Both the position numbers and the translations under genes were made by a program. Positions 6,477-51,827 of a DNA stretch of 64,000 nt are shown here, piece after piece. The notes beneath the pieces are model-generated. The model was not told the DNA's origin, did not search any database, and saw nothing but the letters and a program-made list of their open reading frames with translations. The DNA comes from a candidate division WOR_3 bacterium SM23_42. GTDB lineage: Bacteria; Hydrothermota; Tepidihabitantia; SM23-42. The DNA lies in contig LJUJ01000003.1 of the NCBI GenBank assembly GCA_001303785.1, positions 14,027 through 78,026 of the forward strand. Reading direction: 5' to 3'. Positions within the stretch are counted from its first letter, which is position 1. Each line of letters starts with the position of its first letter.

Positions 6477-6542
6477 ACCTCCTCTGGATCATCGTTACAG
6501 ACTTACATAATGCATGAATGGTAAGGTAAATGACCATCATGC

Positions 6543-6938: not shown

Positions 6939-6944
6939 CTGCGG

Positions 6945-12103: not shown

Positions 12104-12956
12104 ACAGACCAGAAAGTTTCTGAAGATCGTGAAGGCGGCCTTAAAAGAAGACATCGGCCGTGGTGACATTACAACGGAGGCTGTTGTTTCGAAAGAAGAC
12201 AGAGCGCTAGGCGTGATATTCGCTAAGGAAGAGGGCGTGTTGTGTGGCGTTGACATCGCACAAATGGTGTTCGAGCAGCTCGATGATACTGTCGATTTTC
12301 AGAAACAACTCGACGATGGCAGTGCACTTTCCCCTGGGGTAACAATCGCCATTATCATCGGTAAGGCCTCGACCTGTCTCAAAGGCGAGAGAACCGCCCT
12401 CAATTTTCTGCAGCATCTGAGTGGAATCGCAACACTTACCAGGCAATTTACCGAAGGCGCAAAAGGAAGCATAAAGTTCTTAGATACCAGAAAAACTATA
12501 CCCGGGCTAAGAATCATGGAGAAATATGCGGTACGTGTCGGCGGTGGCTTCAACCATCGTTTCGGGCTTTACGATATGGTCATGATCAAGGACAATCACA
12601 TTCAGATCGCCGGCAGCATAACCGAAGCCGTGAACAGAGTGCGAAAGAGCAGACCAAAGGCATTCATTGAAGTTGAAGTAAAAACGCACGAAGAACTGAG
12701 GGAAGCCATCGCGCTGAAGATCAACCGGGTTATGCTCGACAACATGACACGGAATCAGATAATTCAAGCAGTCGATCAGACACGAACCACTGAGGATAGT
12801 ATCGAGATCGAAATAAGTGGTAGTATCAAGCTTGATAACATCGAACAATACGTCGACTGTGGAGCCGACTTCGTTTCCATCGGGGCACTCACCCACTCGG
12901 CAAAGGCTTTGGACATTGCCCTAAAGATGAAACTATTGGCTCCTAAGAGCACTTGA
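12060..12956 (+). CDS. nadC: Nicotinate-nucleotide pyrophosphorylase [carboxylating] (quinolinate phosphoribosyltransferase)
   Basis: [16 protein letters not shown]-terminal motif and overall NadC pattern. The true start may be the GTG near 12127 rather than the ATG at 12060, which overlaps uvrB. Confidence 0.85.
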
Positions 12957-14227: not shown

Positions 14228-14247
14228 TATCTACGATTATTTTGTAG

Positions 14248-14538
14248 TTACTGCAAATCTTTTTTTATCTTTTCATATTCTTGCTTTGTGATTTCCCCTT
14301 TGGCATAGCGCTTTTTCAGAATATCGAGCGCAGTCTCTTCGCCGCCGTGCTTCATCAATTTATCTCCACGCAAGACAAAGTATATTATAATACCAATCAG
14401 CACTAGGAATATCAGCCACATAAAAGCACCTCCATAGCCCCAAAACCCGTGTCCCCAATCCATCATGTGCCATCCTCTCGGATAATAACAAGAGGATAAA
14501 GTCAGAGTCAACAACAGGAGTAGTGTAAAAAATCTCAT
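14248..14538 (-). CDS. SHOCT-domain membrane protein
   Basis: TM segments followed by a C-terminal ILKKRYAKGEITKQEYEKIKKDL (SHOCT short C-terminal domain). Confidence 0.6.
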   Translation of the reverse strand: MRFFTLLLLLTLTLSSCYYPRGWHMMDWGHGFWGYGGAFMWLIFLVLIGIIIYFVLRGDKLMKHGGEETALDILKKRYAKGEITKQEYEKIKKDLQ

Positions 14539-18313: not shown

Positions 18314-19580
18314 AACCTATTGCGGCCACTCCGGCCAAATTACTCTCGGAATCAATTAAGAAGTTCCCATTAATCACCACCATCTCATTTTCGAACAACC
18401 CCTCCAGCACTGGGTAGTAACGGGTGCCGGTCTCATCTCCGTGCGCATAGCCCTCAGGTCCCAGCTTTACTACACGCGGCTGAAACTTATCATCACCAAT
18501 AGCCACCCAGACAATCTGTCGATTTCCCATATCGAGCACCGCATCTTTGGGAATCGTAATAACCATACTCGTGCCCGTTATACTGCGCACTTCATAAGGT
18601 GCTATTATCTTGGCTTCGATGAACATTCCTGGTTTCAATTTTGGTTCCATATTATTCAACCGTATCCGCGCCTTGACCGACCGTGTCTGCGAATCAAGAA
18701 TCGGACTAATAGATACAACCCTGCCTTTAAAGTTCTCACCCGGATACGCACTCGATGTTGCGATAACGTCCTGACCCCTATTGACCCAGCCCATGTCTGG
18801 TTCATAGATGTCGGCATAGATCCAGTTCCGTCCTTCAGGCATTATCAGTGATCTCTCAGGCTTCCTTGTTTGCCTCAAATGCCTTACTTCCGCGGCATCC
18901 ATTCCCAGCAGCCTTAGTTTGTATTCCGAACGTTGAATAAGCTGGGTAGCCCGCTCCTGTGCTGTCAGGCCATCACCATCAATCATATCGCTCATCTGAA
19001 GCGCATTGACGTATTCCTCCTGCGCCGTCACCAGTTCAGGATCATAGGCCACTGTTCCCACTGCCATTATTTCTTTATGCACGTGACGCCTCGTGGCGGG
19101 CACCGTTTCGATACCCGCGAGCTCTATATCCTGTGCGCTGAGGTGCAGTGCGTTTTCTGATTCACTTCCCTCATAAACTGGGATTAAAGACATACCACAA
19201 ATGGGGCAATTACCCTCTTCATCCGACTTCACTTCCGGGTGCATCGAACATGTCCAGTATTGTATCTCAGAATCTTTGCCGGTTTCGTTCTCCATCGACT
19301 GCTCTTTTTGCTGCATCAGCATGATATATTTTTCCGGATCTTTCATGAACTCAGTATCGCAACCCGGACAGCACATGTAATACTCTTGACCCTTATATCG
19401 AACAACAGGAGTGGATTCGTGAATAGTAAACTCATCACCGGTCACTGGACAAATCGCTTCGGAACCGATCAGTTCCTGATCTAGCTGAACTTTTGCCGCC
19501 TTTTCTCCACAAGAGAATACTACTAGCGAAGTCAACAATAAGAAAAAGACGACGATTGATATTCTAATGTCTGCAGACAT
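18255..19580 (-). CDS. cusB: RND efflux periplasmic adaptor (CusB/CzcB family) with N-terminal heavy-metal-binding domains
   Basis: N-terminal YHS/TRASH-like CPVTGDEF...YYMCCPGCD and a WTCSMHPEV...CPICGM metal-binding module, followed by membrane-fusion-protein beta-barrel/lipoyl regions. Confidence 0.85.
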   Translation of the reverse strand: MSADIRISIVVFFLLLTSLVVFSCGEKAAKVQLDQELIGSEAICPVTGDEFTIHESTPVVRYKGQEYYMCCPGCDTEFMKDPEKYIMLMQQKEQSMENETGKDSEIQYWTCSMHPEVKSDEEGNCPICGMSLIPVYEGSESENALHLSAQDIELAGIETVPATRRHVHKEIMAVGTVAYDPELVTAQEEYVNALQMSDMIDGDGLTAQERATQLIQRSEYKLRLLGMDAAEVRHLRQTRKPERSLIMPEGRNWIYADIYEPDMGWVNRGQDVIATSSAYPGENFKGRVVSISPILDSQTRSVKARIRLNNMEPKLKPGMFIEAKIIAPYEVRSITGTSMVITIPKDAVLDMGNRQIVWVAIGDDKFQPRVVKLGPEGYAHGDETGTRYYPVLEGLFENEMVVINGNFLIDSESNLAGVAAIGYGGALGVQEKEAAPVGHRR

Positions 19581-19589
19581 AATACCTCC

Positions 19590-20801
19590 TTATTTCTGAT
19601 TATCAAAGCCGACAGCTTCCTCTAGGTCGGCTACGGCCATGAATAGGTCTACTCGCGCCTGTTCGTATTCGAACTCGGTCTGGACTAACAATTTCTCACT
19701 CTCGAGTAGGCTTTGAAATTCTATCTTGTTCACCTCATATGAAGCAAGCGCGGACTTCACTCCGGCCTCGGCTTGCGGCAAGATTGAATTTTTGTACAAC
19801 TCCACTACATGCTGAAACTTTTCGACTCGCGTCTTCGCATCCTTTACTGCCAGCAGAAGATTATTTGCCATCGCCTGATAATTAGCAGATGCTTTCAGTA
19901 ATTTAGCCTCGGCTTCCCTGACAAACTCACGCTGTTTTGCCCAAAACCAGATAGGGAGGGTAATGCCGATCATATACTTGTTGCTGTACGCATCATTGTC
20001 CATTTTTTCCAGTGTATATCTGAACGCAAAATCTGGCAGGTATGTCTGGCGGGCCATCGACAACACGACCTCTGCTTTCCTACGCTGTAATTCATAAACC
20101 TTTAACAATGGCTGGTTTTCCTGAGCCAGCGCATACAACGTGGCTAATCCTAAGCTATCGGTAGTTGTCTCGAGCCGGAGAGGTCTGCCCACTTTCACTT
20201 CAAGATCACGGTTGAGCAAGACGTTGACTTTAGCTTCAGTTATATTCAAGTCATCTCGTAATACTACCAGTCGATTTTCAGACCGGGCCAGTTCCACCTG
20301 TGCTCTGAGCACCTCGGCCTGAGAAGCCTCACCAATTGAGTATTTATATACTGTGATGCTGTGTATCTGCTTGAGAAAAACAATTGATTTTTCTAGCGCG
20401 GCGATGTTTCTAGAAAGCAAGAATAGTTCTGCATAGGCTTTTTTCACATCCCTTATGATCTGTTGGATCCTGCTCACGTACAAATTACGATATTGATTGG
20501 TCTCGTTGCGGGCGACATGAGATAGGCTGGCGATTTTTGAGGGAAACGGTACCGGCAAGGTCAAGCTGTACATTCTCTTACTCTCACTGAACTCCGCAGC
20601 AATAGTGGGATCAGCCAAATGTCGAGCCCACGATGTGGTCGCACGGATAGCTTCATAATCGGCCTTGATCGCCTGCAATTCTGGATTGTTCGCCTTTGCC
20701 TCTTCAATCAACTCATCAAGGCGTAGCTCCTGGTCAGCATCTGCACGGCTCCAAACAGGCAAAGAAAAGAATAACAAAAACGCTAACAATAATCGCTTCA
20801 T
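19590..20801 (-). CDS. cusC: Outer membrane efflux protein (TolC/CusC family)
   Basis: Signal peptide; two-repeat coiled-coil/beta-barrel TolC-like organisation; about 400 aa; immediately upstream of cusBA. Confidence 0.85.
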   Translation of the reverse strand: MKRLLLAFLLFFSLPVWSRADADQELRLDELIEEAKANNPELQAIKADYEAIRATTSWARHLADPTIAAEFSESKRMYSLTLPVPFPSKIASLSHVARNETNQYRNLYVSRIQQIIRDVKKAYAELFLLSRNIAALEKSIVFLKQIHSITVYKYSIGEASQAEVLRAQVELARSENRLVVLRDDLNITEAKVNVLLNRDLEVKVGRPLRLETTTDSLGLATLYALAQENQPLLKVYELQRRKAEVVLSMARQTYLPDFAFRYTLEKMDNDAYSNKYMIGITLPIWFWAKQREFVREAEAKLLKASANYQAMANNLLLAVKDAKTRVEKFQHVVELYKNSILPQAEAGVKSALASYEVNKIEFQSLLESEKLLVQTEFEYEQARVDLFMAVADLEEAVGFDNQK

Positions 20802-21111
20802 TTTATGAATAGACGGATTACATAACGGTAAGTTACGTAATGACCGGATCAGTAGCGTTATATGAAGAAAACCGGCGACTGCCTACAGTGCAGATTAAGT
20901 TTCTCTGCTCACGGCAGACGCCGGTTGGGAGGAACCAATAAAGCATCTCCTATGCTTTGATGTCCCTTTTGGTTCTCAAATCTATTGACGGTTCATCGTT
21001 AAAAAAGTTACGACACCGAATCGTCCGCGCGCTCGGAATCAACTTTCTTAACCTGACTGACGGATCGTGTGTAAAAGTTTTGCGGTATATCTTCTCTTGA
21101 GTTAATTCGTA

Positions 21112-21903
21112 CTAAGGACAGTGCCTATTTGAGGCATCAGGGTTCTTGATACATTCGATACACTTGTGCTGATTTAAACAATCTTGTATCGCCTCTTCAA
21201 TAACTGCCGTGTCACCATCGCAGGCACAATGTCTTGCTTCCTGCAGCACCTTCATCTGCTGCTTACTGCATTCATAGATTTGATCGATGATCTCCAATGC
21301 GCTATTTTCATCCAGAAGTTCAGCACAATTAATCGCTAGTCCTGTCTCGTGCAGCATCTTCGCCAACAAGTCTTCATTAATTTTCACCCCCGGTGTGAGC
21401 AAAGACATAAATTCATCAGTTCGCTTACCTGCATAAACTACATGCAGTCTTGCCTTGCCTTTAGTATCAGTGGTTAGCAAAAGCTGGACGCGCTCAGTGG
21501 CAATCTTGATTGGGTATAGCATATGACCGGGCAGGCTGTTGGCGCTCAACGAGACTGTGGTCAAACCGACCACAAAAACTAGCAAGGTAATTGCAGCAAC
21601 TCGAACCATGACTGGCCTCAGAGCGAATATTTCTCGCAATGAGAATCCTTTCGGCGCCTTCTGTTCGCTCAAAAGCACGCGTGCTTGGTTGATTACGGTT
21701 TCAATCACCTCTGCACTGGGTTCAGGCTTGGGCAACTCGGCTATGCTGTTCACCAAGTGTAATAACGGTCTCAGTTCGTCCGCATATTCAGGATATTCAC
21801 GCAGACAATCATCAACGGATCTGCCCCTTTTGACTTCAGCTATTAGTTCATCTAATATTTCTTCAATTTTTGTCTTCATAACCTTGTCTCGAAAAATAGT
21901 CAC
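21112..21903 (-). CDS. Putative transmembrane anti-sigma factor with Cys/His-rich periplasmic C-terminus
   Basis: Overlaps the 3-prime end of the ECF sigma gene. One TM segment (VMVRVAAITLLVFVVGLTTVSLSA). The C-terminal tail HCACDGD...CLNQHKCIECIKNPDASNRHCP has 7 Cys and 3 His. Confidence 0.5.
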   Translation of the reverse strand: MTIFRDKVMKTKIEEILDELIAEVKRGRSVDDCLREYPEYADELRPLLHLVNSIAELPKPEPSAEVIETVINQARVLLSEQKAPKGFSLREIFALRPVMVRVAAITLLVFVVGLTTVSLSANSLPGHMLYPIKIATERVQLLLTTDTKGKARLHVVYAGKRTDEFMSLLTPGVKINEDLLAKMLHETGLAINCAELLDENSALEIIDQIYECSKQQMKVLQEARHCACDGDTAVIEEAIQDCLNQHKCIECIKNPDASNRHCP

Positions 21904-22444
21904 GCAAAGCCCTCAACGCCCTGAATTGAAGTACCTTTATCGCGCCAACAGATTTGCCCATGAATTCAGCCGCTTCGCTATTACTGAATCCTTCGATGAA
22001 TCTGAGAATTATCACCTGCCGCTGTTCCTCGGTTAATCTTTGCATACCTTTTCTTAATCGTTCCCTGGTCAAGGTTTGCCGGGAAAAGTCGGCCGATTTG
22101 TCTGCGATGTCATGCGACAGATCGGAAAGTGATAGTTCGCGACGTACCGCCTTTTTTCGATAGAAATCTATCAGTGCGTGCTTGGCTATTTTGTACATCC
22201 AGGCATGAAAATTGCCCCGCTGATTTTTCAACGCCTTTATCACCTTCAAAACAACCTCACTTGTTAAATCTTCAGCGTCTTCAGGCTGATTTACTCGGTA
22301 GAAAACATAGCTGTAAATCCTTGAATACACATAGACACACAACTGTGATAAGGCATCTTCATCACCTTTCTTTGCACCATCGACAAACCTCCTAAGCTCG
22401 TATTTTTCTAGATCTTTTCTCAAATGTAAAGACGGATAGTCTTT
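21863..22444 (-). CDS. ECF-family RNA polymerase sigma factor
   Basis: Sigma-70 region 2 (YVYSRIYSYVFYRV...PEDAEDLTSEV) and region 4 (LTEEQRQVIILRFIEGFSNSEAAEFMGKSVGAIKVLQFRALRAL). Start placed at the internal ATG (MKDYPSLH); the longer ORF to 22585 is probably an over-extension. Confidence 0.85.
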   Translation of the reverse strand, partial: KDYPSLHLRKDLEKYELRRFVDGAKKGDEDALSQLCVYVYSRIYSYVFYRVNQPEDAEDLTSEVVLKVIKALKNQRGNFHAWMYKIAKHALIDFYRKKAVRRELSLSDLSHDIADKSADFSRQTLTRERLRKGMQRLTEEQRQVIILRFIEGFSNSEAAEFMGKSVGAIKVLQFRALRALRDYFSRQGYEDKN

Positions 22445-28381: not shown

Positions 28382-30445
28382 GTGATAAGTGTCGACCATT
28401 TGAAAGAATTGATCGCCAGTGGGGACTTTGATAAGGTAGAAAACCTCTGGACAGATTTGATTACGGAGAGGAATATCGGTCTGGCCGAATACTTTGAGAT
28501 AAGCGATGCCCTTAAGCAAGTTGGTGAGCTCAAACGAGCATGCTTGCTGCTGGAACTGCTCGGCGACCACTACGAGACGCAACGAAATTACAGCGCTGCG
28601 ATCGAAGTGCAAAAACACATGCTACGCTATCGCCAGGAAGATCTCTCAATACGTAAGAGACTAATCGAGCTGTATCGCAAGCAACACCCTAATTCACAAC
28701 ATCTCGAAGAATACTTGGAGCTTTCAGGTTTGAGCAAATCTGACCCCATCATGAAGGCGATGCAGCGATTCGAAGAATTCCTTAAATACGACGTGGGCAA
28801 TTACTTTTACTTTGAGCGCTATGGCATGGGTAAAATCGTTGAAGTAATACCCCAAAAACGGGAAATCGTGGTCGATTTCGAAAAGAAGAATCGCCATTTT
28901 CTCGATATCGACGTTGCCCGGGGACTACTGTCACCGGTTAATGCCGAGCACTTCCTCTACAAGAAAAACAAGGAACTTGATGACTTGAAATCACTGGCAT
29001 CCTCACAACCGGTGCAACTTGTGGTAATGATCCTCCAGAGCTTCCGCGAACCACTCTCCGCGCCAAGAATTAAAGGTTATCTTGAGGGTATAATTGATAC
29101 AACCGAATTGAATTACTTCTGGGGAAAAATCAGGAAAGACCTCGAAAAAAATGATAACGTTAGGGTCGCTGGTAGGACAAATAAGACCTACACATACGTT
29201 GGTTCAGCAGCGGCTAAGCAAGATCACGCGATAAAAGCCTTCAATGAGGCAAATATTCGAGAGAAGTATCTATTGGCTGAAGAATATTTAAAGAAAATGC
29301 CTGAAGTTTTCAACATTCTGACACCAAGACTGAGACAATTAGGTCCCCAGGTTCGAAAAGAACATCCCGGGATTGCCCTCGACATACTTATGCTGTTTCA
29401 TGACATCGGGGAACTCAGCGAGATTGATCATTCAACAAAGGAACTGCTGAACGTGAGTAAGCCTGAAGACATACTCAACGACATGGCAAGCCACGAGCAT
29501 CAAGCCAGGCTACTACTCTATCTAAAGGAAAAATATCCTGACGAATGGCTGCAAACTGCCAAGAAAATATTGCTCAACAGCGAAGATTTCAAATTACTCG
29601 ATTCCGTGGCAGATAACTTGAAAAGCACGCCGCACACACTTGAGGATATTAACCACAAGATATTTGCCATGCCAAAACAATATACTAAACAGTATCTCTG
29701 GATGCTAAAAAGAATCGAAGCAGGTGCTCTCGCCGAATATTTGAAACCCACGCACATTCCCAGATTGATCGACACCCTTGAATACATAAGCGGCATCAAG
29801 GCAATCGTGAAGAAAATATTGTCTCTCGAAGCTTTCGATACTATGATCGCAAACGCCACGGAGAATGAAGCTTCAAGAATACGAAAATCCCTCAATAGAA
29901 GTGCTGCACTGAATGATTACGAAAAAAAAGGTCTCTTAAGGATTATCGAGCATCACTTCCCGGATTTGTTCGAAAAAAAATACGATATAATATACACAAC
30001 TGCAGCTGCGCTAAAAAGAAAAAAAGAAGAACTCAACCATATCCTCAGCGTCGACATACCTGCAAATAAAAAGGAAATTGGCCGGGCGCGTGAGTTCGGT
30101 GATTTGAGTGAAAACTTTGAATATAAGGCGGCCAAAGAAAAACAGGATCAGCTCTACGAGAAAGTGAAAACCATTGAGTCTGAATTGCAGAAGATACAAC
30201 TCATTGAGTCCTTAGAGATAAGGACAGACCGTGTTGAGATTGGAACCGCAATTACGTTAAGAAGCTCCAGGGACAATTCATTCGTCGTGTACAGAATACT
30301 TGGCCGGTGGGATACCGACCTGGCACACAAAACCATTTCTAACGAGGCGCCACTTGCCCGAGCGATGCTGGGTAAAAAACGTGGTGATTCAATTGAAATC
30401 GAGGGCATCGAATACGAAATCGCCGAAATCGGCAAGGCTTTCTGA
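28382..30445 (+). CDS. GreA/GreB-family transcription elongation factor with a ~500-aa N-terminal extension
   Basis: C-terminal ~160 aa matches GreA: EFGDLSENFEYKAAKEKQDQLYEKVKTIESEL...ISNEAPLARAMLGKKRGDSIEIEG. Starts with GTG. Confidence 0.75.
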   Translation: MISVDHLKELIASGDFDKVENLWTDLITERNIGLAEYFEISDALKQVGELKRACLLLELLGDHYETQRNYSAAIEVQKHMLRYRQEDLSIRKRLIELYRKQHPNSQHLEEYLELSGLSKSDPIMKAMQRFEEFLKYDVGNYFYFERYGMGKIVEVIPQKREIVVDFEKKNRHFLDIDVARGLLSPVNAEHFLYKKNKELDDLKSLASSQPVQLVVMILQSFREPLSAPRIKGYLEGIIDTTELNYFWGKIRKDLEKNDNVRVAGRTNKTYTYVGSAAAKQDHAIKAFNEANIREKYLLAEEYLKKMPEVFNILTPRLRQLGPQVRKEHPGIALDILMLFHDIGELSEIDHSTKELLNVSKPEDILNDMASHEHQARLLLYLKEKYPDEWLQTAKKILLNSEDFKLLDSVADNLKSTPHTLEDINHKIFAMPKQYTKQYLWMLKRIEAGALAEYLKPTHIPRLIDTLEYISGIKAIVKKILSLEAFDTMIANATENEASRIRKSLNRSAALNDYEKKGLLRIIEHHFPDLFEKKYDIIYTTAAALKRKKEELNHILSVDIPANKKEIGRAREFGDLSENFEYKAAKEKQDQLYEKVKTIESELQKIQLIESLEIRTDRVEIGTAITLRSSRDNSFVVYRILGRWDTDLAHKTISNEAPLARAMLGKKRGDSIEIEGIEYEIAEIGKAF

Positions 30446-41752: not shown

Positions 41753-41780
41753 TTGACGTAATATGATATTTGTTTATAAT
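41753..41780 (+). promoter_or_regulatory. Sigma70-type promoter (TTGACG-N16-TATAAT), ~55-nt leader to the 41840 ATG
   Basis: TTGACG at 41753-41758 and TATAAT at 41775-41780. Confidence 0.35.
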
Positions 41781-41839: not shown

Positions 41840-44800
41840 ATGAAAACTTGTCCAGTCTGCAATAATCAGAGCGTCCCCGGCTACGCAAATCATTGTCCGA
41901 ATTGCGGCGTAACACTCACGGCATACAAGAAGCAAACCGTAGAGGCCGAGCGCCTCCGGCTGTTGGGTGGTGAACTCAGACTGCTAACAGTATTCTTCGT
42001 GCAATTGATAGGCATCGAAAAGTTGATAAAAAGGGACACCGATGAAACGATAGAAAAACACATCCAGGATTTTCTGACCAACATCGAGAAGATCATTCAA
42101 GACTATGACGGAACGTCAAATCGTATCATTCCTGACTTCCGCATCCTGGGTATCTTTGGCGCCCCACATGCACACTATGACGACCCCTTGAGGGCAATAC
42201 GTTGTGCAAGCAATATCCAAGACTGGTGGCTAAAAAGCAAAAAGGAATCTAAGTTCCTCAGGAACGTCGATACGAGAATCGGAGTTAACACCGGCCGGGC
42301 ATTTTTCGGTTTCGTGCTTAAGGAATCACCATTCTTGACTGTCATTGGAGACACCATCAACACCGCGGCGCGCCTCACCGAAATAAGCCAGCAAAATGAG
42401 ATACTAATGACCAAGACCACGTACAACGCGGTGCTACGATATGCAGACGTCACACATATTGGCGAACAGGCGGTTAAAGGTAAAAAAACCAAAGTCGATA
42501 TCTACCGGCTCAGCAAAATCAGAACCACACCAAGAGTAACTGAGCCGCAGAGAATGCCGCTCTACGGCCGTGAGGCCGAATTGAAAAAATTGATTGCCCT
42601 TGCCGATAGGTTAGCCGACCATCGTGCAGTCTATTGCGCTATCAACGGGCAAATGGGCAGTGGGAAGAGCAGGCTTAAGGAGGAATTTGCATTTCATTTA
42701 AGCAGGAATGAAGCAATCAATCATTTTGAAACGAACTGCTCGGTCGATGTGCAATCACCATACTATCCTTTCAGGTCCTTACTCAGACGTTTTTTAGACC
42801 TGCACGAGTTCGACAGCCAGGATACCATGACCAAACGGATTCACGATGTGGTTGGTCAGAGAGAGCTTAGTCCACCCATCGCCAAGGGTATTAAGCACTT
42901 GCTCTTAACCGATATCGGCCGGTTGCGCAGCGAAGACATACGCGCGGTCAACGATGAAATCTACGCCTCGGTGCGCAATTTCATAAGGAGTGAATGTCGG
43001 CAAAAAGCTCTGGTACTGATCTTCGAGAATTTTGGCCAAGCCGATGTGATGTCCAAGGAGTTAATCACATATCTGATCTCCGAACTCGAAGACGAACCAA
43101 TAATGTTTCTGCTGATAAATGCGCCCGACAAGTTTCTCCAAACGGCCTCAATTCCCGTCGATAGAATTGACCTGAAACCTTTATCAAAGAAAGACATCTA
43201 TGCGCTGATTCGACATATGCTCACCAATGTTGATAAACATCTAGCCGACTTCATATATCGTGAAGCAGGCGGTAGTCCACTCTTCACAATCGAAGCCATC
43301 CGCAACACACGGCGCAATAAAATTATAAAAAAGGTCTCGGGAACGTGGTGTTTGGAAAAAGAACAGGTACTGGTTTTTCTCGATGACCTTTACGGATTAG
43401 TCATGTCGACGATCGATTCCCTTGCCTCTAACGCGCGTCTTATTATTGATTATGCCTCGGTCATCGGCTACCGTTTCAGCTTCCGCATATTGAAAGAGCT
43501 CCTTGCTTGGCCTGATTTGAAAGCACAGCTGGACTACCTGATTGCTGAGGGATATGTCGTACTGTCGTCAGACGGCGAAGATCCAGTATACATTTTCCGT
43601 CACAATCTACTCAAAGACGCCGCCTATCAAGTGCTCCCGGTTAGAAAACGAAAAGAAATACATCAAAAAGTGGCGTCTCTTTTCGAACAGGTATACCGCG
43701 ACACTTTGTCCACGTTTTACGAAGACGTCGCAAGGCATTATCAGGCCTCCGACCGACATGCGCGTGCTGCCGAGTATTTTAAGCTGGCCGGCGATAAGGC
43801 AAAGAACCTCTACGCGATTGATCAGGCATTGTCTTTTTATGAACAAGTTCTGAATACGAAGAACGAAATCGGGGATGAACTACCAAAAACCCTATACCAG
43901 GACGTCATGCTGAACTTGGTAGACATCTATGAAATCAAGGGTGACATCAAGAAGATGGAAAGAACGGCGCGGGAACGACTTGCTGATGCACGTCAGGACA
44001 AGGACCTAAAAAATGAGGTATTGTTTGCGGAACGTGACGCATATGCGCTCATACTACTTAACAAAACAGAAGAAGCGGAGCAACTATTAATATCCAGCAT
44101 AGACAGATGCGACGAGCAAATGGTAAGCATCCTAGCCATCTTGTATTCGGATTTAGGCATGCTCTATGCAAACAAATATGAATACGATAAGTGTCTCATA
44201 AACTACAATCTGAGTTGGAGAACGGCACACGCTAACAACATACGAGAAGCTGAGATAGTGTGCCTGTTCAATCTATCGAATCTGCACAAGAGCCTGGGCA
44301 ACTATGAACAGGCATTGGACTATCTGCAACATGGTTTGGAGATCCTTATCGATGCCGAGGATATCAGAAGGAACATCGAACTGCAATATCTGATTGCGAA
44401 CATCGACTATGAAATATGGAATATTGAAAAAGCCAAGGGACTGCTAGCAGAGTGCTTCATGACCGCGGATTCTATTGGCAGTTTTGACGCATACATAAAG
44501 TCCGCGTTGGATCTTGCTTTCATCCATTCACTCAACGGCGATGTACGGCAGGTAGAAAAATACCTGCAATCTGTCGATAAGAAGATATCATTCCTCATTC
44601 GTGAGAGCCTGCTTGCCGAAATCGACCTAAAAAAGGCACTGGTCTATTTCAACAATCAGGAATACAAGAAGGCACGTGATTACGTAGTGAACAGCATGAG
44701 AATTGCCGAAAAGTCATACCGCGCAGAGATCGTGTTCCAATGTCAAAGGTTATTGTCCCTGATCGACAAACAACATGACCTAGAACATGCCAAAAAGGCA

Positions 44801-45016
44801 CTCGAGCTAGCAGAACTAATGAAACTACCACCTTTGATCGCCGCCGCTCTGTATAGGGTCACCGAAATCTTTTCAGAGAAGGGTGATATTGAACGGGCAC
44901 GCTACTACGGAAGAAAAGCCTTGCTAGTCTATGATGACATAAAATCGCGACTCAATGATAAGAACCAGCAACATTATGTGAATCGACCTGAATATACGAG
45001 GCTGCTGGAGATTTAG
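41840..45016 (+). CDS. Multidomain signalling protein: N-terminal zinc ribbon + class-III nucleotide-cyclase homology domain (metal-binding Asp residues substituted) + STAND/AAA NTPase + TPR repeats
   Basis: CPVCNNQSVPGYANHCPNCG. Cyclase homology domain (CHD): TVFFVQLIGIE has Gln where the first metal Asp is expected, RILGIFGA has Ile where the second is expected, but RIGVNTGRAFFG and IGDTINTAARLTE retain the transition-state Asn/Arg. Walker A GQMGSGKSRL; long TPR-like C-terminal half. Confidence 0.8.
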   Translation: MKTCPVCNNQSVPGYANHCPNCGVTLTAYKKQTVEAERLRLLGGELRLLTVFFVQLIGIEKLIKRDTDETIEKHIQDFLTNIEKIIQDYDGTSNRIIPDFRILGIFGAPHAHYDDPLRAIRCASNIQDWWLKSKKESKFLRNVDTRIGVNTGRAFFGFVLKESPFLTVIGDTINTAARLTEISQQNEILMTKTTYNAVLRYADVTHIGEQAVKGKKTKVDIYRLSKIRTTPRVTEPQRMPLYGREAELKKLIALADRLADHRAVYCAINGQMGSGKSRLKEEFAFHLSRNEAINHFETNCSVDVQSPYYPFRSLLRRFLDLHEFDSQDTMTKRIHDVVGQRELSPPIAKGIKHLLLTDIGRLRSEDIRAVNDEIYASVRNFIRSECRQKALVLIFENFGQADVMSKELITYLISELEDEPIMFLLINAPDKFLQTASIPVDRIDLKPLSKKDIYALIRHMLTNVDKHLADFIYREAGGSPLFTIEAIRNTRRNKIIKKVSGTWCLEKEQVLVFLDDLYGLVMSTIDSLASNARLIIDYASVIGYRFSFRILKELLAWPDLKAQLDYLIAEGYVVLSSDGEDPVYIFRHNLLKDAAYQVLPVRKRKEIHQKVASLFEQVYRDTLSTFYEDVARHYQASDRHARAAEYFKLAGDKAKNLYAIDQALSFYEQVLNTKNEIGDELPKTLYQDVMLNLVDIYEIKGDIKKMERTARERLADARQDKDLKNEVLFAERDAYALILLNKTEEAEQLLISSIDRCDEQMVSILAILYSDLGMLYANKYEYDKCLINYNLSWRTAHANNIREAEIVCLFNLSNLHKSLGNYEQALDYLQHGLEILIDAEDIRRNIELQYLIANIDYEIWNIEKAKGLLAECFMTADSIGSFDAYIKSALDLAFIHSLNGDVRQVEKYLQSVDKKISFLIRESLLAEIDLKKALVYFNNQEYKKARDYVVNSMRIAEKSYRAEIVFQCQRLLSLIDKQHDLEHAKKALELAELMKLPPLIAAALYRVTEIFSEKGDIERARYYGRKALLVYDDIKSRLNDKNQQHYVNRPEYTRLLEI

Positions 45017-45017
45017 G

Positions 45018-45665
45018 ATGCTCTGCATGACCTGCAAGAAAGAAGTAAACCAACCGCTCAACTTCTGCCCATGGTGCGGCACCACGCTACGTGCCGAGAC
45101 TCCGTCACGTTTTGAGAACGTAAAGCTGACATTCCTGCGCGTCGATCTGTCCGGGTTCACTAAGATGAGTGAAGCCATGATCGCTGAAGATGTCATGGCA
45201 GTCCTGAACGAAATCTTTGGGGTCTTCGCAAAAATCGTAGAGTCTAACAAAGGAATAGTATATCAGCTTATCGGAGATGAGATAGTCAGTATTTTCGGAC
45301 TCAACATAGAATCGGGTTTTGCACCCCATATGGCGATTCTGACCGCGGATGAGATGTTCAGCAAGTTGCTCGATTTCAATAAGAAGGGAGGTTTCAAAAG
45401 CCCAATAGGACTCAAGGTTGGTGCCGAGATCGAATCAGCCTCGATATTCGATCTGCACTATGACCTAAAGAGTGCACTAATTCTAACCAAGGGCTTTAGG
45501 AAAAGCCAGATACTACAGAAAAACGCGGCCACTAATACGATCTTAGTTGGTGAAAATCTTCATAAAGTAACCAAAGGCTTCTTCGACTACCGCGAGGTCG
45601 GCGAATTCGTTGAGGAATCATTTGCAGTAAAAGCATATGAGTACAAACTAAAGTTGAAAGGCTAA
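45018..45665 (+). CDS. Small zinc-ribbon + nucleotide-cyclase homology domain protein (retains both metal-binding Asp, lacks transition-state Asn/Arg)
   Basis: CMTCKKEVNQPLNFCPWCG. FLRVDLSGFTKMSE has the canonical F.D..GFT with Asp; VYQLIGDEIVSIFG has the canonical IGD...FG with Asp. IGLKVGAEIES matches the IGIHTG-like region. Leu/Phe replace the Asn/Arg in the region aligned to GDTVNxAxR. Start overlaps the upstream stop by 1 nt. Confidence 0.6.
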   Translation: MLCMTCKKEVNQPLNFCPWCGTTLRAETPSRFENVKLTFLRVDLSGFTKMSEAMIAEDVMAVLNEIFGVFAKIVESNKGIVYQLIGDEIVSIFGLNIESGFAPHMAILTADEMFSKLLDFNKKGGFKSPIGLKVGAEIESASIFDLHYDLKSALILTKGFRKSQILQKNAATNTILVGENLHKVTKGFFDYREVGEFVEESFAVKAYEYKLKLKG

Positions 45666-47857
45666 TGGAAGAACATATATTAGACCTATACAATGATTTA
45701 CTTAAACTTCTAAGGATGGGTGTATACCTAGCAAGAACCTATCCTGACGGTCATCCTTCGCAGATGCGCACGGTGCAGCGGTTGCACAAGCTATTCAACG
45801 AACTCCGAATCGAAAAACGCGTTGTATCGATCGTCGTCATCGAGAATGTCTTAACGATTGAGAACGAGAGATTCGATTCACAGAAAATAAGCATCGTGAA
45901 ATATCTCGTGGATAGGTTTCATCAAATTGGCGTCAACAGTATCACCTTCAATACCGAAGTCTCGGAAAGCGACCTCAATGAATTCTTCTCTGTGATGTCG
46001 ATGCAACCCTCAGACATCGAAGACTTTGGCGATGTCGTTGCCGTGATGCGAATGCGGGACATTACCGGCGTAAAAGTTAATATCTACCGTGTAGGTGTTG
46101 TCTCCTCAGACGAGGACATGAGGGAATTGGATTGGGAGAACTTCCTCGAATCACTTATAACTGCGGAAACACCCAAGACAGAAGAAGAACGACTCAAGGA
46201 ATTAGGCAATTTCCTCGGCGTGCTTGGTGTTGACGGCAGCGACAGTACTGAAATTCAATCTAACAAAATAGTTGGCGGCCTCGAAAAACTCGCCCTCATG
46301 GTCGTGGACCGGTACGGCGAAGAACGATGGAATGAATACTCGTTAGTTTTTTCGAGAATCCTTGCCGTGCTATCACCCTCGGTCAAGAAGAATATCGTCC
46401 GGTACCGCACCGAGAATAAGAAACTTGCCGACCTATTCCGCAAGTTGGTGCCGACCATGGACGACGAGGACATCGTCGACATCGTCGTGACCATCGCCAA
46501 GAAGAAATCGCCCAGATCCGAAGATGACGTAGTGGACATCCTATCAAACGTCTCGAGCGTCAAGTTGCCAGATATCCTGACTACCTTAAGACAACGCGCT
46601 CCTGAATTCTACACACACAAGTTCGTGGACCGATTAATGGGTCAGGTGAAATCTAGGAAAGGTCCGGAAGCCGCGACCAAATTCGTGATTAGGAATCTTG
46701 AACTGGAGATGAAGAGCCAATTCCCCAAGCTGCGCAGCGCAAAAGCCGAGGAGCGAATAAAAGCAATCGAGGCTCTCATCAAATTCGCGGGTAAATTATT
46801 CGAGTCCAAGAATTACGACTTGGTTCGCCTCATGGCAAACCGACTGGATACAATGGCCGAGGCAGAATCTGACCTCAATGCCTTTGCCAAAGCCATCGAC
46901 GCCATGAAGATTCTCTACATCAAGGCACACGAAGATGAGGCCAGTGAGGTAATGGATTTCATTGCCAAGAAGTATGCAAAGTATTTGATGCGTAAAGACT
47001 CGATATTCCTCGAACGTAAGCGGTTCGTGATCAAGGCAATCGGTGAAACGAAGGATCCCACTTACATCCCTGAACTGATATCCTCACTGTGGGCAGCCGG
47101 CACTTACGCAGAAGCACGGGAAGCGTTGATTGCGCTTGCCGACCATTCCGCTCCCCTGTTGATTCAAACCCTCCGGGAGACCGAAGACTATTCGGTCAGA
47201 ATGAAAATCCTTGATATCTTGAAGAGGATGACGGATAGAGTTATACCCGAGGTAATCGGCTTGCTTAAGGCTGAAGAATGGTATGCGCGGCGTAATGGTG
47301 TGTTCATATTAGGCGAATTAAAGGCCGAATCGACGGTTGACGACATCGGGGCATTATTAAATGAAGATATCGAGCAGATACAGCTTGAGGTAGTGACGAG
47401 TTTAGGTAAAATCGGTGGTACCAGGTGTAAAGAATATATTCAGAAAGCACTCGGCAGCAAATACACCGACGTTACACTCGAGGCCATGAAGAACTTGGAC
47501 CCAGAAGATTTCAAAGAAAAAATCCCCGACGTCCTAGAATGGTTGAAGAGACAAAAGAGATTTCCGGATGAAGCAGAAGAACAGTTTAGATCCCGGGTCA
47601 TCGATGTTTTGGCCAAATGCAAATACGAATCGGTGATCAATGCACTTACTGCAGTGATCAAAGAACGCGCCTGGTTCAAGGGGAACTTACTTCAAGCGAC
47701 CAAGACGGCCGCCCTCAACGCACTTGCGCAAATCGGCACTCCAAAAGCAATGCAAGTCCTACAAAAAGCCGCCAACAACCGAAACCAGTTCATAGCCCTA
47801 ACCGCACAGGATGTGCTCCAGCGGGTTACAACCATACCTGAGGAAACCACGAGATAG
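45665..47857 (+). CDS. HEAT-repeat (PBS-lyase-like) protein with unrecognised N-terminal domain
   Basis: The C-terminal half holds multiple ~30-aa repeats of the form ...ARRNGVFILGELKAESTVDDIGALLNEDIEQIQLEVVTSLGKIGG..., typical of HEAT_2/PBS-lyase repeats. Start codon overlaps the previous stop (ATGG/TAATGG). Confidence 0.55.
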   Translation: MEEHILDLYNDLLKLLRMGVYLARTYPDGHPSQMRTVQRLHKLFNELRIEKRVVSIVVIENVLTIENERFDSQKISIVKYLVDRFHQIGVNSITFNTEVSESDLNEFFSVMSMQPSDIEDFGDVVAVMRMRDITGVKVNIYRVGVVSSDEDMRELDWENFLESLITAETPKTEEERLKELGNFLGVLGVDGSDSTEIQSNKIVGGLEKLALMVVDRYGEERWNEYSLVFSRILAVLSPSVKKNIVRYRTENKKLADLFRKLVPTMDDEDIVDIVVTIAKKKSPRSEDDVVDILSNVSSVKLPDILTTLRQRAPEFYTHKFVDRLMGQVKSRKGPEAATKFVIRNLELEMKSQFPKLRSAKAEERIKAIEALIKFAGKLFESKNYDLVRLMANRLDTMAEAESDLNAFAKAIDAMKILYIKAHEDEASEVMDFIAKKYAKYLMRKDSIFLERKRFVIKAIGETKDPTYIPELISSLWAAGTYAEAREALIALADHSAPLLIQTLRETEDYSVRMKILDILKRMTDRVIPEVIGLLKAEEWYARRNGVFILGELKAESTVDDIGALLNEDIEQIQLEVVTSLGKIGGTRCKEYIQKALGSKYTDVTLEAMKNLDPEDFKEKIPDVLEWLKRQKRFPDEAEEQFRSRVIDVLAKCKYESVINALTAVIKERAWFKGNLLQATKTAALNALAQIGTPKAMQVLQKAANNRNQFIALTAQDVLQRVTTIPEETTR

Positions 47858-47923
47858 AGATATACCCAAAACTGCACCGCCCGAGGGTTTACGAAAAGCA
47901 TACTAATCTGAACCGGTGTGAAC

Positions 47924-47951
47924 TTGACACCTAGGTAATTTCCGTTATAAT
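47924..47951 (+). promoter_or_regulatory. Sigma70-type promoter (TTGACA-N16-TATAAT) ending 5 nt before the hsp20 ATG; predicts a leaderless transcript
   Basis: TTGACA at 47924-47929 and TATAAT at 47946-47951; ATG at 47957. Confidence 0.45.
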
Positions 47952-47956
47952 CAACT

Positions 47957-48385
47957 ATGAAACGCCCAGTCTCAGAAAAAGATCTAGAAACGCACATTGA
48001 ATTCATCATCGACGACAACATTGATTACGATGACAGTAACGTCTTCCCAGAATTCGCTAACTGGCAACCACTGTATAATCTATACACTACACCTGAAGGT
48101 ATAATGATTCACCTTGAACTAGCAGGAGTAGATACACGCGACATAGTTATCTATTTGCGCACCAGACATATGATTATCATGGGCAACCGCACAACACCCC
48201 CCGGATTGACCGGGGATTGCTGTGTTTTTCACAATCTAGAAATTCCATATGGCCGCTTCATCCGTCGAATCGACTTTCCAATCCCAATCGAGACACGACA
48301 ACATCAACACGAAATGCGCGACGGGCTTCTAACCATACATTTAAAGACATTAGAGGAAAAAATCATCCCCATCGAAGGTGAGTAG
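47957..48385 (+). CDS. Hsp20/alpha-crystallin family small heat-shock protein
   Basis: IHLELAGVDTRDIVIYLRTRHMIIMGNR...YGRFIRRIDFP...DGLLTIHLK matches the alpha-crystallin domain beta-strand pattern. Confidence 0.7.
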   Translation: MKRPVSEKDLETHIEFIIDDNIDYDDSNVFPEFANWQPLYNLYTTPEGIMIHLELAGVDTRDIVIYLRTRHMIIMGNRTTPPGLTGDCCVFHNLEIPYGRFIRRIDFPIPIETRQHQHEMRDGLLTIHLKTLEEKIIPIEGE

Positions 48386-48441
48386 TGAAGGGATTTACAA
48401 GAACGATAAACATTAGTTGTCCTATTTTGTCAAAACAGTGA

Positions 48442-50787
48442 ATGGTTGATACGCTAATCAAAATCCCTGAAGAGCTTGGCATCATTCCTATCAAAGGTGG
48501 TGTCATATTCCCGGACCAGGTGGTGCCACTCATAATTCACACACAGAAGCTGGCAAAACTCATCGATGAAATCCTGACCACTAATAAGCTAGCCGGCGCC
48601 CTAACCCAAAGAAATCCAGACATTGAAGAACCGAAGCCTCATGAGGTATTCGACATCGGTTGTGTCATTCAGATCACAAAAATGCTCCGCTTCCCCGATG
48701 GCACCATCAGATTACTCATTAAGGGCCTTAAGCGCTTCCGGGTCACGGAATTCACTCAAGATCAACCGTATCTAAAGGCGAAAATAAATATTGTAACAAC
48801 GAAATATAAGAAAACCGTTGCGCTCGAAGCCATGATGCGCAACGTCGTGACCATGTTTCAACATCTCGTATCGCTCGCCCCTTATTTACCTGACGAGTAC
48901 GCTGCTGTGATCCTAAACATGGAATCTGCGGATAACCTCATCGACTTTGTGACCAGCACGATTAACTTCGACTACCACGAGAAGCAAGCTCTCCTTGAAA
49001 CGACAGAACCAAAAGAGCGCTTTGCAAAACTCATTCCCATGCTACAAAAGGAAATCAGCATACTCGAACTCGGTGCCAAGATTCGCTCCGACGTGAAGAG
49101 CGAGTTGGATAAAGGTCAGCGTGAATTCTATCTGCGCGAACAACTGAAGGCAATTCAAAAGGAGTTGGGCGAGACCGACGAACACGCGCGCGAGATCGAT
49201 GAATTGAGAAAGAAAATCTTGGAAGCAAGAATGCCCAAGGAGACCAATAAGGTAGCCCTGAAAGAACTCGACCGTCTGGCCAAGATGCCCCCCCACGCCG
49301 CCGAATATACGGTATCGAGAACCTATATTGATTGGCTAATTTCTTTACCCTGGTCGCTTTCTACACAGGACAACATGAACATCAAGCGGGCCCAGAAGAT
49401 ACTTGATGAGGATCACTACGATCTGGAAAAAGTCAAGGAACGAATACTCGAATACCTCGCGGTGAAAAAATTGAAACCGGACTCGAAGGGGACAATACTC
49501 TGCTTCATCGGACCGCCCGGTGTGGGCAAGACATCGCTCGGCAAATCCATTGCCCGCGCCCTGGGACGTAAGTTTATCAGAATCTCTTTGGGCGGAATCA
49601 GAGATGAAGCGGAGATCAGAGGGCATCGCAGAACTTATGTGGGCGCCTTGCCCGGAAGAATTATCCAGTCGGTCAAAAATTGCGGTACAAATAATCCTGT
49701 ATTCATGCTTGACGAAATTGACAAAGTAGGCACCGACTTCCGCGGGGATCCCTCTTCGGCTCTTTTGGAAGTACTCGACCCCGAACAGAATAATGCCTTT
49801 TCCGACCACTATCTAGAAGTACCTTTTGACCTCTCACGTGTCATGTTTATCGCAACTGGGAATATTATTGACCCCATTATCCCAGCACTTAAAGATCGCA
49901 TGGAGATGATTGAACTACCTGGTTATATACTAGAAGAAAAACTTGAAATTGCGAAGAAATATTTGATTCCGCGCCAGATACAAGAAAATGGCCTTAAGTC
50001 CAAGAACATATTGTTCGATGATGCAGCTGTCAAGCGCATTATCAGTGCCTACACAAAAGAAGCAGGGGTACGGAATCTCGAACGTCTTATTGGCTCCATC
50101 TGCCGCAAGGTAGCAAAGCGAATCGCCGAAGGCAAGCGGGGTAAGGTTAAGTTAAGTGCGAAAAAACTAACTCAATTCCTTGGACCTCAGAAAATTGTGC
50201 CTGAGGTTGCGGCCCGTGATGGTCAAATCGGTGTCGCAACCGGGCTCGCCTGGACTCCCTACGGTGGTGAAATTTTGTTCATCGAAACGCTTAAAACGAG
50301 AGGCAAGAAGGGTTTGATTCTAACCGGCCTTTTAGGCGACGTCATGAAGGAATCGTGCCAGGCGGCGCTTTCGTACTTAAAGACAAGAATGCGTGGTTGG
50401 GGAATTGCCTTGAGCGATCTCGAAAATCAAGAATTGCACATTCATATTCCTTCCGGGGCTATCCCTAAAGATGGCCCCTCTGCGGGACTCGCCGTCGTCA
50501 TGTCACTGGCCTCGCTTATTCGGAACAAATCAATTGATTCCAAGATCGCCTTTTCGGGTGAAATCACTCTTGCCGGCCGGGTTCTTCCAGTCGGAGGCAT
50601 CAAGGAAAAGGTAATTGCCGCAAAAAGGGCAGGTATCGAGAAGATTATGTTGCCCAAGGAGAACGAAAAAGATTTGCAGGAAATTCCCAAGCACGTGCGT
50701 GCCGGCCTGTCGTTCATCTTCGCGTCGAGAATCGATCAAGCGTTGAATAATATCTTTCACAACAAAAAACATAAGGTCAAGAAATGA
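48442..50787 (+). CDS. lon: ATP-dependent Lon protease (LonA)
   Basis: Lon N-domain, Walker A GPPGVGKTS, sensor/arginine finger regions, and a C-terminal protease domain with PKDGPSAG (catalytic Ser) and a Lys dyad. Confidence 0.95.
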   Translation: MVDTLIKIPEELGIIPIKGGVIFPDQVVPLIIHTQKLAKLIDEILTTNKLAGALTQRNPDIEEPKPHEVFDIGCVIQITKMLRFPDGTIRLLIKGLKRFRVTEFTQDQPYLKAKINIVTTKYKKTVALEAMMRNVVTMFQHLVSLAPYLPDEYAAVILNMESADNLIDFVTSTINFDYHEKQALLETTEPKERFAKLIPMLQKEISILELGAKIRSDVKSELDKGQREFYLREQLKAIQKELGETDEHAREIDELRKKILEARMPKETNKVALKELDRLAKMPPHAAEYTVSRTYIDWLISLPWSLSTQDNMNIKRAQKILDEDHYDLEKVKERILEYLAVKKLKPDSKGTILCFIGPPGVGKTSLGKSIARALGRKFIRISLGGIRDEAEIRGHRRTYVGALPGRIIQSVKNCGTNNPVFMLDEIDKVGTDFRGDPSSALLEVLDPEQNNAFSDHYLEVPFDLSRVMFIATGNIIDPIIPALKDRMEMIELPGYILEEKLEIAKKYLIPRQIQENGLKSKNILFDDAAVKRIISAYTKEAGVRNLERLIGSICRKVAKRIAEGKRGKVKLSAKKLTQFLGPQKIVPEVAARDGQIGVATGLAWTPYGGEILFIETLKTRGKKGLILTGLLGDVMKESCQAALSYLKTRMRGWGIALSDLENQELHIHIPSGAIPKDGPSAGLAVVMSLASLIRNKSIDSKIAFSGEITLAGRVLPVGGIKEKVIAAKRAGIEKIMLPKENEKDLQEIPKHVRAGLSFIFASRIDQALNNIFHNKKHKVKK

Positions 50788-51827
50788 TATTGCTTCTTTT
50801 TTTTCAGATAGAGTACCAGGTCATTAATAGAATACACGGCGATTCAGCACAAGAATTGGCGCTATACTACAAAATGCCTTCAAGAAGTCTTCAGTATTAT
50901 GCAAAAGACACATCTTTTCAGGGTGAATACGAGATCCAGGTAATAATATTCGACAAACACGATAACCAATTAACCGGAGATTACTGGCGCAAAACCGCAA
51001 CTGAGGATACCGTTGACATACAAGATTCGATCAAACTCTACATACCAAGCAACAGCGACTACTATGCTTTCAAAATCATCGATTTGCATGCTGGCGTAAT
51101 ATTTACAGCCACAGAGAAACTCATACAGGCAAGAAATTTGGGGAACGTATTCTGGGCGATTTCAAACGACAGGCTCAAATTATCATTTACGATCCTCAAT
51201 CGGCAAGGCGTTATAGACAGTACCGTTGCAACAATCGGTAATCTGAAACAAGCAAAAGCGGTAAGAAAAGGTTCGTATAATGACTCCATAATTTTTGACG
51301 TCGCCGGCTTATCCATCGATGAGCATCAGTTAAAACTCGAGTTGTACTCGGAGCAGGGCAAAATCGATGAATTAGTCATTCCAATCAAGGTTTCACGTCC
51401 GTTCTACCTAGACGAAGAAATGTGGTCCTTGAGGGTCGATCAGCTGCAGTATATAGCGACCCCACGGGAGATGGATAGGCTGAATAAGACCCTTGAACCG
51501 GAAAGGGATTCATTGTGGCGCGAATTCTGGAGTAAATTCGATCCGACACCAAACACCAGGTACAACGAAAGAGAAGCCGAGTATTTTGAACGCATAGCTT
51601 ATGCGGAAAAAAACTTCTCAAATGGAGATCTGGGCTGGCGCAGTGACCGAGCGAGAATCTTTGTGAAGAATGGACCTCCTGATGAGATTCAGCGTTATCC
51701 GTACGAAATAGATTCTTACCCTTACGTGATCTGGTATTACTATCAAAACAATCTGCGCTTCTTGTTTGTGGACCGTTATGGCTTCGGTCAGTACATACTC
51801 GCGAGTCCGGATGTTTTAGGCTTATGA
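50784..51827 (+). CDS. GWxTD-domain protein
   Basis: C-terminal ...SLWREFWSKFDPTPNT...NEREAEYFERIAYAEKNF...GDLGWRSDRARIFVKNGPPDEIQRYPY...YVIWYY...LRFLFVD... fits the GWxTD-domain core. Start ATG overlaps the lon stop (ATGA). The N-terminal ~230 aa is unassigned. Confidence 0.6.
   Translation: MILLLFFQIEYQVINRIHGDSAQELALYYKMPSRSLQYYAKDTSFQGEYEIQVIIFDKHDNQLTGDYWRKTATEDTVDIQDSIKLYIPSNSDYYAFKIIDLHAGVIFTATEKLIQARNLGNVFWAISNDRLKLSFTILNRQGVIDSTVATIGNLKQAKAVRKGSYNDSIIFDVAGLSIDEHQLKLELYSEQGKIDELVIPIKVSRPFYLDEEMWSLRVDQLQYIATPREMDRLNKTLEPERDSLWREFWSKFDPTPNTRYNEREAEYFERIAYAEKNFSNGDLGWRSDRARIFVKNGPPDEIQRYPYEIDSYPYVIWYYYQNNLRFLFVDRYGFGQYILASPDVLGL

Follow-up and report, generated by a model that had tools for sequence, protein, structure and literature searches.

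Mammalian adenylyl cyclase builds its catalytic centre from two dissimilar cyclase homology domains (CHDs), C1 and C2, between which the catalytic roles are divided, and the alpha and beta subunits of soluble guanylyl cyclase are arranged likewise, with the metal-binding Asp on one CHD and the Lys, Asp/Thr, Asn and Arg on the other. This asymmetric design is known from the animal adenylyl and guanylyl cyclases. A comparable division of residues is found in a three-gene cassette (positions 41840-47857) within a 64,000-nucleotide stretch of DNA, here called the window, from the candidate division WOR-3 bacterium SM23_42, a source to which the 730-residue product of the third gene is also assigned by its 100% identity to AMJ83_02860 of that organism. 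The cassette encodes a large cyclase subunit with STAND NTPase and TPR modules, a small cyclase subunit, and a HEAT-repeat protein; with moderate confidence we read the three as one signalling module in which a split cyclase is joined to a STAND/TPR switch and a HEAT partner. From mammalian C1/C2 the pair is set apart by the encoding of its halves in two different bacterial genes, by the attachment of a STAND NTPase and TPR array to the C2-like one, by the zinc ribbon at the N-terminus of each, and by a specificity pair of Lys/Arg-Thr (class IIIb) rather than Lys-Asp.

Bacterial cyclases that join a CHD to an ATPase (AAA_16/NB-ARC) and TPR/HTH modules are reportedly found in Mycobacterium tuberculosis (Rv0386, Rv1358 and Rv2488c), and the large subunit follows their order of a class III CHD, a STAND-type P-loop NTPase and helical repeats. 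So far as is known, these proteins are homodimers with a complete catalytic set and a LuxR-type HTH at the end, and neither a HEAT partner nor a small CHD subunit of their own is known for them. With the MalT-type STAND ATPases the large subunit shares the P-loop NTPase, helical arm, TPR sensor and Walker motifs, and ligand-gated, nucleotide-dependent oligomerisation would be expected of it; its output, however, would be a cyclase half-site instead of a DNA-binding domain, and an extra HEAT partner is encoded in trans. The best NCBIfam match of the large subunit (residues 66-672) is the TOMM kinase/cyclase fusion TIGR03903, an identity that was rejected at 146.9 bits against the 705.75 bits of the model, over model positions 309-919 only; the subunit also lacks a kinase domain, and TOMM genes are absent from its surroundings. 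Full-text literature searches returned no description of the cassette, nor of any bacterial cyclase split into C1 and C2 and associated with STAND. The cassette is a variant of the cyclase-STAND signalling proteins, and the N-terminal domain of its HEAT protein (the N-domain) is new as far as the searched libraries show. The proposed module, if real, would give the asymmetric C1/C2 cyclase a clear counterpart of two genes among prokaryotes, and would be a tractable system in which to study the gating of a cyclase half-site by a STAND switch.

Conservation of the three-gene cassette

A search with the HEAT protein recovered 111 relatives of 46-100% identity, nearly all full-length, and all organism-level names among them are WOR-3. 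A scan of one genome per species gave 38 loci, which belong to WOR-3, Stahlbacteria and 'TA06', and the genes in them were located by tblastn with the window proteins and delimitation of the open reading frames (ORFs). In all 38 species genome loci the large cyclase gene is followed on the same strand by the small cyclase gene and then the HEAT gene, and both junctions always fall between -4 and +5 nt. Incomplete triads are mostly explained by a contig end. In L011, from a complete genome (CP070802), the large-cyclase match (~6176-7384) is partial and has no counterpart of the query before residue 395, for which truncation of the gene, a frameshift or masking of the sequence could be responsible. 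Metagenomes were scanned with the small cyclase alone as seed, in order to avoid the bias of seeding with the HEAT gene, and in each of the 40 orthologous loci (L049-L088) the large cyclase gene precedes the small one and the HEAT gene follows it. An earlier note on this DNA had taken the three genes for a single unit, to be given up if the HEAT gene were absent from most orthologous cassettes; the gene is missing from none of the 38 genome or 40 metagenome loci, and the unit stands. More distant relatives, found with the N-domain profile, preserve the triad order in L042/L088 and L044, and a Candidatus Hydrothermales locus (L046) has the same three families in the permuted order small cyclase, HEAT, large cyclase.

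A conserved fourth gene was sought by clustering all flanking ORFs and none was found; only the cassette families are near-universal (36-37 of 38 clustered loci), the next family being RlmN with 16. The divergently transcribed rlmN-like gene lies upstream of the cassette in those 16 loci, which belong to both clades, and this argues for vertical inheritance at an old chromosomal position; the identity range of the rlmN-like proteins resembles that of the cassette proteins. The evidence points to a three-gene signalling operon that has been inherited vertically across the WOR-3 lineage. In the window the large and small cyclase genes are joined as TAG-g-ATG, a 1-nt spacer, and the small cyclase and HEAT genes as TAATG, a 1-nt overlap. 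The earlier note gave these junctions as 1-nt and 4-nt overlaps, which has to be amended, the 4-nt overlaps of this region falling elsewhere (lon/GWxTD at 50784-50787 and GWxTD/GWxTD at 51824-51827); its ORFs for the cyclase pair, the HEAT protein, hsp20 and lon are exact in their coordinates, and their domains are confirmed by Pfam and NCBIfam.

Further signalling genes occur near some cassettes. Within 10 kb of the cassette, WOR-3 genomes carry additional cyclase-STAND-TPR paralogs (L002/L014 at 19489-22196; L003 at 1-926), one of them GGDEF-AAA_16-TPR and one a 1282-residue CHD-AAA_16-TPR protein. In members of one WOR-3 subclade the HEAT gene is succeeded on the same strand, at a spacing of 190-600 nt, by a gene for a triple-GAF-GGDEF diguanylate cyclase (L023 at 12359-14365; also L024, L029, L031, L034 and L041), and a GAF-GGDEF gene follows the distant N-domain-HEAT gene P0143 in L047 (9294-11291). 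GAF domains can bind cyclic nucleotides, and the GAF-GGDEF protein downstream of HEAT is for this reason a candidate receptor, with a possible relay to cyclic di-GMP (c-di-GMP).

Catalytic residues of the two cyclase subunits

Both subunits are class III CHD proteins by profile, each exceeding the 21.9-bit cut-off of Guanylate_cyc (PF00211) in the Pfam domain calls, and each opens with a conserved CxxC...CxxC zinc ribbon. The CHDs were aligned to the solved class III cyclases CyaB 3r5g, 2w01 and CyaC 1wc0, and the catalytic positions were tabulated in 33 large-subunit and 39 small-subunit orthologs; structure-database matches of the small subunit include mammalian VC1 (1cjk, 1azs). The small subunit was called a mini-CHD in the earlier note, whereas its residues 34-204 align to CyaB 3r5g as a full-length cyclase domain from whose C-terminal half the catalytic residues are gone.

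Neither chain holds the complete catalytic set of two Asp, Lys, Asp/Thr, Asn and Arg, and what each lacks is found on the other. In the window the small subunit keeps D43, GFT46-48 and D87 and has lost the Lys, Thr, Asn and Arg; in the large subunit Q55 replaces the first metal Asp, and R95, D99, T167, N174, R178 and K213 are kept. The first metal Asp is D43 in 39 of 39 small subunits and has been lost from 30 of 33 large ones, where the position is occupied by N (19), S (7), Q (2), G (1) or D (3). The GFT motif is kept in the small subunit and mostly lost from the large (Gly in 21/33, Phe in 7, Thr in 0). The second metal Asp is present in both, as D87 (39/39) and D99 (33/33). At the base-contacting Lys the small subunit has Q (38/39) and the large subunit R in 17 and K in 9 of the 33. 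The three remaining positions are occupied in every large subunit by T167, N174 and R178 (33/33 each), and in the small subunit by L, by R/K/A and by I, respectively. The division is sharper still at greater distance: in L042/L088, L044 and L046 the large subunit is without both Asp and keeps the K, T, N and R, the small subunit has both Asp, and C3, C6, C17, C20, D43 and D87 of the small subunit are invariant even there.

Since the residues are divided as they are between C1 and C2, the two CHDs are predicted to form an obligate heterodimer with one catalytic and one degenerate site, a pairing that we infer also from the -4 to +5 nt coupling of the genes. In such a dimer a single composite active site would receive the metal-binding D43 and D87 from the 215-residue subunit (the C1 role) and the base- and transition-state-binding R/K95, T167, N174, R178 and K213 from the 1058-residue subunit (the C2 role). 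The Lys(Arg)/Thr pair is of the class IIIb adenylyl-cyclase type, which would make cyclic AMP (cAMP) the likeliest product.

It may be asked instead whether the CHDs are non-catalytic, serving as dimerisation or nucleotide-binding modules of a STAND/HEAT assembly with an output other than a cyclase reaction. Each CHD taken alone is without the canonical residues, the Lys position varies among the large subunits, and the cassette encodes no cyclic-nucleotide receptor, all of which such a scaffold would accommodate. The surviving residues are, however, the exact complement for one active site, and they are invariant in 33-39 species and in cassettes at 22-27% identity; neutral decay would not keep D and D on one chain and T, N and R on the other. 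We consider a pseudo-enzyme scaffold unlikely, and the split cyclase remains the preferred reading of the pair.

STAND module and proposed HEAT-repeat partner

The large subunit has what defines a STAND NTPase, namely a P-loop, Walker A and B motifs, a helical arm and a repeat sensor, with an AAA_16 match of 67.2 bits against the 32.6-bit cut-off. The Walker A GxxGxGKS and an invariant Walker B Glu396 are conserved among the 33 orthologs, on which ground the switch looks functional, and the STAND arm is the best-conserved part of the subunit. The NTPase and TPR array would control the cyclase in the manner of MalT-type STAND proteins, by switching or oligomerising according to the bound nucleotide.

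The HEAT protein is better conserved over its N-terminal 345 residues than over its HEAT repeats. An AlphaFold2 (AF2) model of residues 1-350 shows a confident alpha/beta subdomain (1-140) and a less confident helical region, and a second model of residues 1-150, made from 65 diverse sequences, reached a predicted local distance difference test score (pLDDT) of 93.9 and a predicted template modelling score (pTM) of 0.87. Foldseek against solved structures gave nothing below E 0.1, the sole hint being the FliG MC domain for the helical part, and Pfam finds MgtE_N and FliG_C on the relative P0128. No Pfam or NCBIfam model covers the N-domain, in agreement with the earlier note, in which the N-terminal 300 residues matched nothing recognisable; this holds for Pfam, NCBIfam and solved structures. 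The N-domain carries a YPxxHP signature whose H30 is invariant in the 65-sequence alignment and conserved at at least 90% in another alignment (A4), and is replaced in GGDEF fusion clusters. An identity as phycobilin lyase or NblB was rejected (NblB 32 bits against a cut-off of 300, CpcE 18.7 against 330), only the generic HEAT_PBS repeat being shared.

At 50% identity, a profile search of 1.84 billion representatives placed the N-domain in 417 clusters. Of 149 representatives, 122 have it at the N-terminus; it is combined with HEAT repeats in 48 of the 69 diverse representatives scanned, and it also heads PAS-HisKA-HATPase histidine kinases, an HD-GYP protein and MshEN proteins (MshEN in 2/69). 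Ten of the 50%-identity clusters consist of 1320-1440-residue proteins with GGDEF, AAA_16, N-domain and HEAT in that order. These fusions (P0176, P0187, P0211, P0218, P0242 and others) thus hold the same STAND and N-domain/helical/HEAT modules in the order of the operon; they differ in being single polypeptides with a GGDEF cyclase, no TPR array and the YPxxHP His replaced. P0242 aligns colinearly with residues 243-646 of the large subunit (E 6e-15) and further on matches HEAT-protein residues 11-276 (E 1e-10) and 507-589.

Fusion of this Rosetta-stone type argues that the HEAT protein docks on the cyclase-STAND protein or is its sensor arm, and binding to the STAND module is what we infer. 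The 730-residue protein, in which the new YPxxHP domain is followed by a helical region resembling ARM repeats and by a HEAT solenoid, would then associate stoichiometrically with the large subunit, dock on its STAND module and supply an extra sensor or adaptor arm. The sensor-adaptor with cyclic-nucleotide output that the earlier note envisaged fits both the heading of kinases, HD-GYP and MshEN proteins by the N-domain and the GGDEF-STAND fusions, although the link to proteostasis that it attached to this idea does not (see below). A wider proposal, which we advance only tentatively and hold to be rather doubtful as a whole, is that the N-domain is a widespread input or docking module of cyclic-nucleotide signalling, with a fold without solved counterpart, and that in WOR-3 a dedicated partner built on it governs the switch of an obligately heterodimeric class III cyclase. 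The YPxxHP domain (150 residues) is in any case a separate lead, being repeatedly attached to cyclic-nucleotide and c-di-GMP machinery. In L094 an MshEN-domain protein (of the c-di-GMP receptor type; 6627-7301) is encoded 1.7 kb downstream of a fused GGDEF-STAND-N-domain-HEAT gene.

Several points weigh against the proposed module. The fusion analogy is indirect, since the fusions carry GGDEF rather than CHD cyclases and have lost the YPxxHP His from their N-domain, and the 8 kb to each side of the gene for the distant N-domain-HEAT protein P0144 (L045) hold no cyclase gene. Because D99 is invariant in the core WOR-3 and three orthologs have the first Asp, homodimers with weak activity might be formed by some large subunits. 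The product could differ from cAMP, because the base-contacting Lys is Arg in 17/33 orthologs and otherwise variable. Finally, the domain scan identified no cyclic-nucleotide receptor within the cassette.

Neighbouring genes and a possible stress or defence role

The earlier note further suggested, as a speculative link, a single system made up of the cassette, hsp20 and lon, with a cyclic nucleotide reporting or controlling proteotoxic stress. In favour, hsp20 and lon follow the cassette in all eight close-clade species genomes and in three metagenome loci, no terminator-like site was found between the HEAT gene and hsp20 in the window, and in two genomes the promoter spacer is absent and hsp20 abuts the HEAT gene: in L009 it starts with TTG and shares 4 nt with the HEAT stop (12190-12193), and in L010 it follows after 7 nt (12196-12204). 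The abutting genes make a local co-expression of cassette and hsp20 possible in L009 and L010. The adjacency, however, is confined to these 8 genomes and 3 metagenome loci, in all of which the HEAT protein shares at least 70% identity with that of the window, a restriction that holds at E up to 1e-3 without a coverage filter. Neither gene was found in the 2.7-10 kb of downstream sequence of 21 divergent genome loci and L003, nor in the distant cassettes L042, L044 and L046 and about 17 divergent metagenome loci (a hand count). The downstream neighbours in divergent loci are others, including IMPDH, NAD synthase, H+-PPase, RadC, a convergent PolX, GAF-GGDEF and DAP epimerase, so that the cassette occurs elsewhere without chaperone or protease genes, the very outcome that the note had named as telling against its proposal. 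In the window hsp20 has a perfect sigma-70 promoter of its own, 5 nt before its ATG, which marks the boundary of the cassette; its CTTGACA-N17-TATAAT is kept in 7 of 9 close-clade genomes while the rest of the spacer is not conserved, so that a separately promoted hsp20 was correctly foreseen. Moreover, the block lon-GWxTD-NYN-PHP-gyrA moves together in the close clade, as ordinary synteny would have it, and hslU, which does lie in the window as had been noted (6945-8306), is on the minus strand 35 kb from the cassette and lends no proximity. A proteotoxic-stress system is very unlikely. The genes hsp20 and lon probably belong to a separate transcription unit, which by an accident of local gene order adjoins the operon in a single clade, and their proximity should not serve to annotate the cassette as a stress system.

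A role in defence against phages would combine a Pycsar-like cyclase with an Avs-like STAND sensor and the HEAT protein as sensor or effector. PADLOC gives weak PycC matches for both CHDs (best E 1.6e-12 and 7.9e-8), and STAND NTPases with repeat arrays are common among defence systems; the PycC matches, though, reflect general CHD homology. A CHD-family cyclase is what the cassette has in common with Pycsar (PycC plus effector), from which it differs in lacking an adjacent effector, in its presence in all relatives sampled and in its vertical inheritance. Pfam finds no effector domain (transmembrane, nuclease, TIR or one binding cyclic nucleotide monophosphates), and the distribution is the opposite of that of patchy islands: the cassette is in every related genome examined, rlmN lies upstream across clades and divergence tracks that of housekeeping neighbours. 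Membership in Pycsar is not indicated, and anti-phage defence appears extremely improbable. The proposed heterodimeric cyclase under STAND and HEAT control is retained as the reading of the features listed in Table 1.

Table 1. Features of the cassette and its surroundings, in window coordinates
Feature	Coordinates	Strand	Evidence
Promoter-like site TTGACG-16-TATAAT	41753-41780	+	59 nt upstream of cassette; 11/12, second-best in 41-51.5 kb; putative function
Large cyclase subunit, 1058 aa	41840-45016	+	Guanylate_cyc 50.9, AAA_16 67.2, TPR_12 43.5 bits; orthologs in all loci
Zinc ribbon CxxC...CxxC, large subunit residues 4-23	41849-41908	+	Four Cys at least 90% conserved in 33 orthologs
Cyclase domain, C2-like, large subunit residues 45-225	41972-42514	+	Alignment to CyaB 3r5g
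STAND P-loop NTPase AAA_16, residues 240-425	42557-43114	+	AAA_16 67.2 bits
Helical/winged-helix arm of STAND, residues 426-640	43115-43759	+	Aligns with same region of fused GGDEF-STAND P0242
TPR array, residues 641-1058	43760-45013	+	TPR_12 and TPR_MalT matches
Small cyclase subunit, 215 aa	45018-45665	+	Guanylate_cyc 28.6 bits and zinc ribbon
Zinc ribbon (residues 3-21) and C1-like cyclase domain (residues 30-205), small subunit	within 45018-45665	+	Pfam; alignments to CyaC 1wc0, VC1 1cjk
N-domain-HEAT protein, 730 aa	45665-47857	+	HEAT_2 74 bits, HEAT_PBS 49 bits
N-subdomain, alpha/beta, residues 1-145, YPxGHP at 26-31	45665-46099	+	Predicted model
Helical middle region, ARM-like, residues 155-345	46127-46699	+	AF2 all-helical, pLDDT 60-78
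HEAT-repeat solenoid, residues 350-730	46712-47854	+	HEAT_2, HEAT_PBS matches
Sigma-70 promoter TTGACA-16-TATAAT	47924-47951	+	12/12; best site in 41-51.5 kb; inside 99-nt HEAT-hsp20 gap
hsp20, 142 aa, outside conserved cassette	47957-48385	+	HSP20 26.7 bits; close-clade loci only
lon, 781 aa, outside conserved cassette	48442-50787	+	Lon TIGR00763 934 bits; close-clade loci only

An Rfam search of 41-51 kb at E up to 1 returned no RNA family, and no riboswitch or RNA thermometer was detectable there. Elsewhere in the window, 28382-30445 encodes a 687-residue protein in which Pfam recognises nothing but the N- and C-terminal domains of GreA/GreB (residues 537-683), the first 536 residues being without a match. 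The start of hsp20 lies exactly 5 nt past the TATAAT (47946-47959) in the window and in six relatives (L004-L008 and L011), a position that suggests a leaderless hsp20 mRNA, since transcription would begin at or beside the start codon. Downstream of lon the gene order is two GWxTD-domain genes, NYN, PHP and gyrA; the lon-GWxTD-GWxTD block with its 4-nt overlaps is kept in the close clade, and Lon, coupled translationally to the two GWxTD proteins, may perhaps form a unit of its own.

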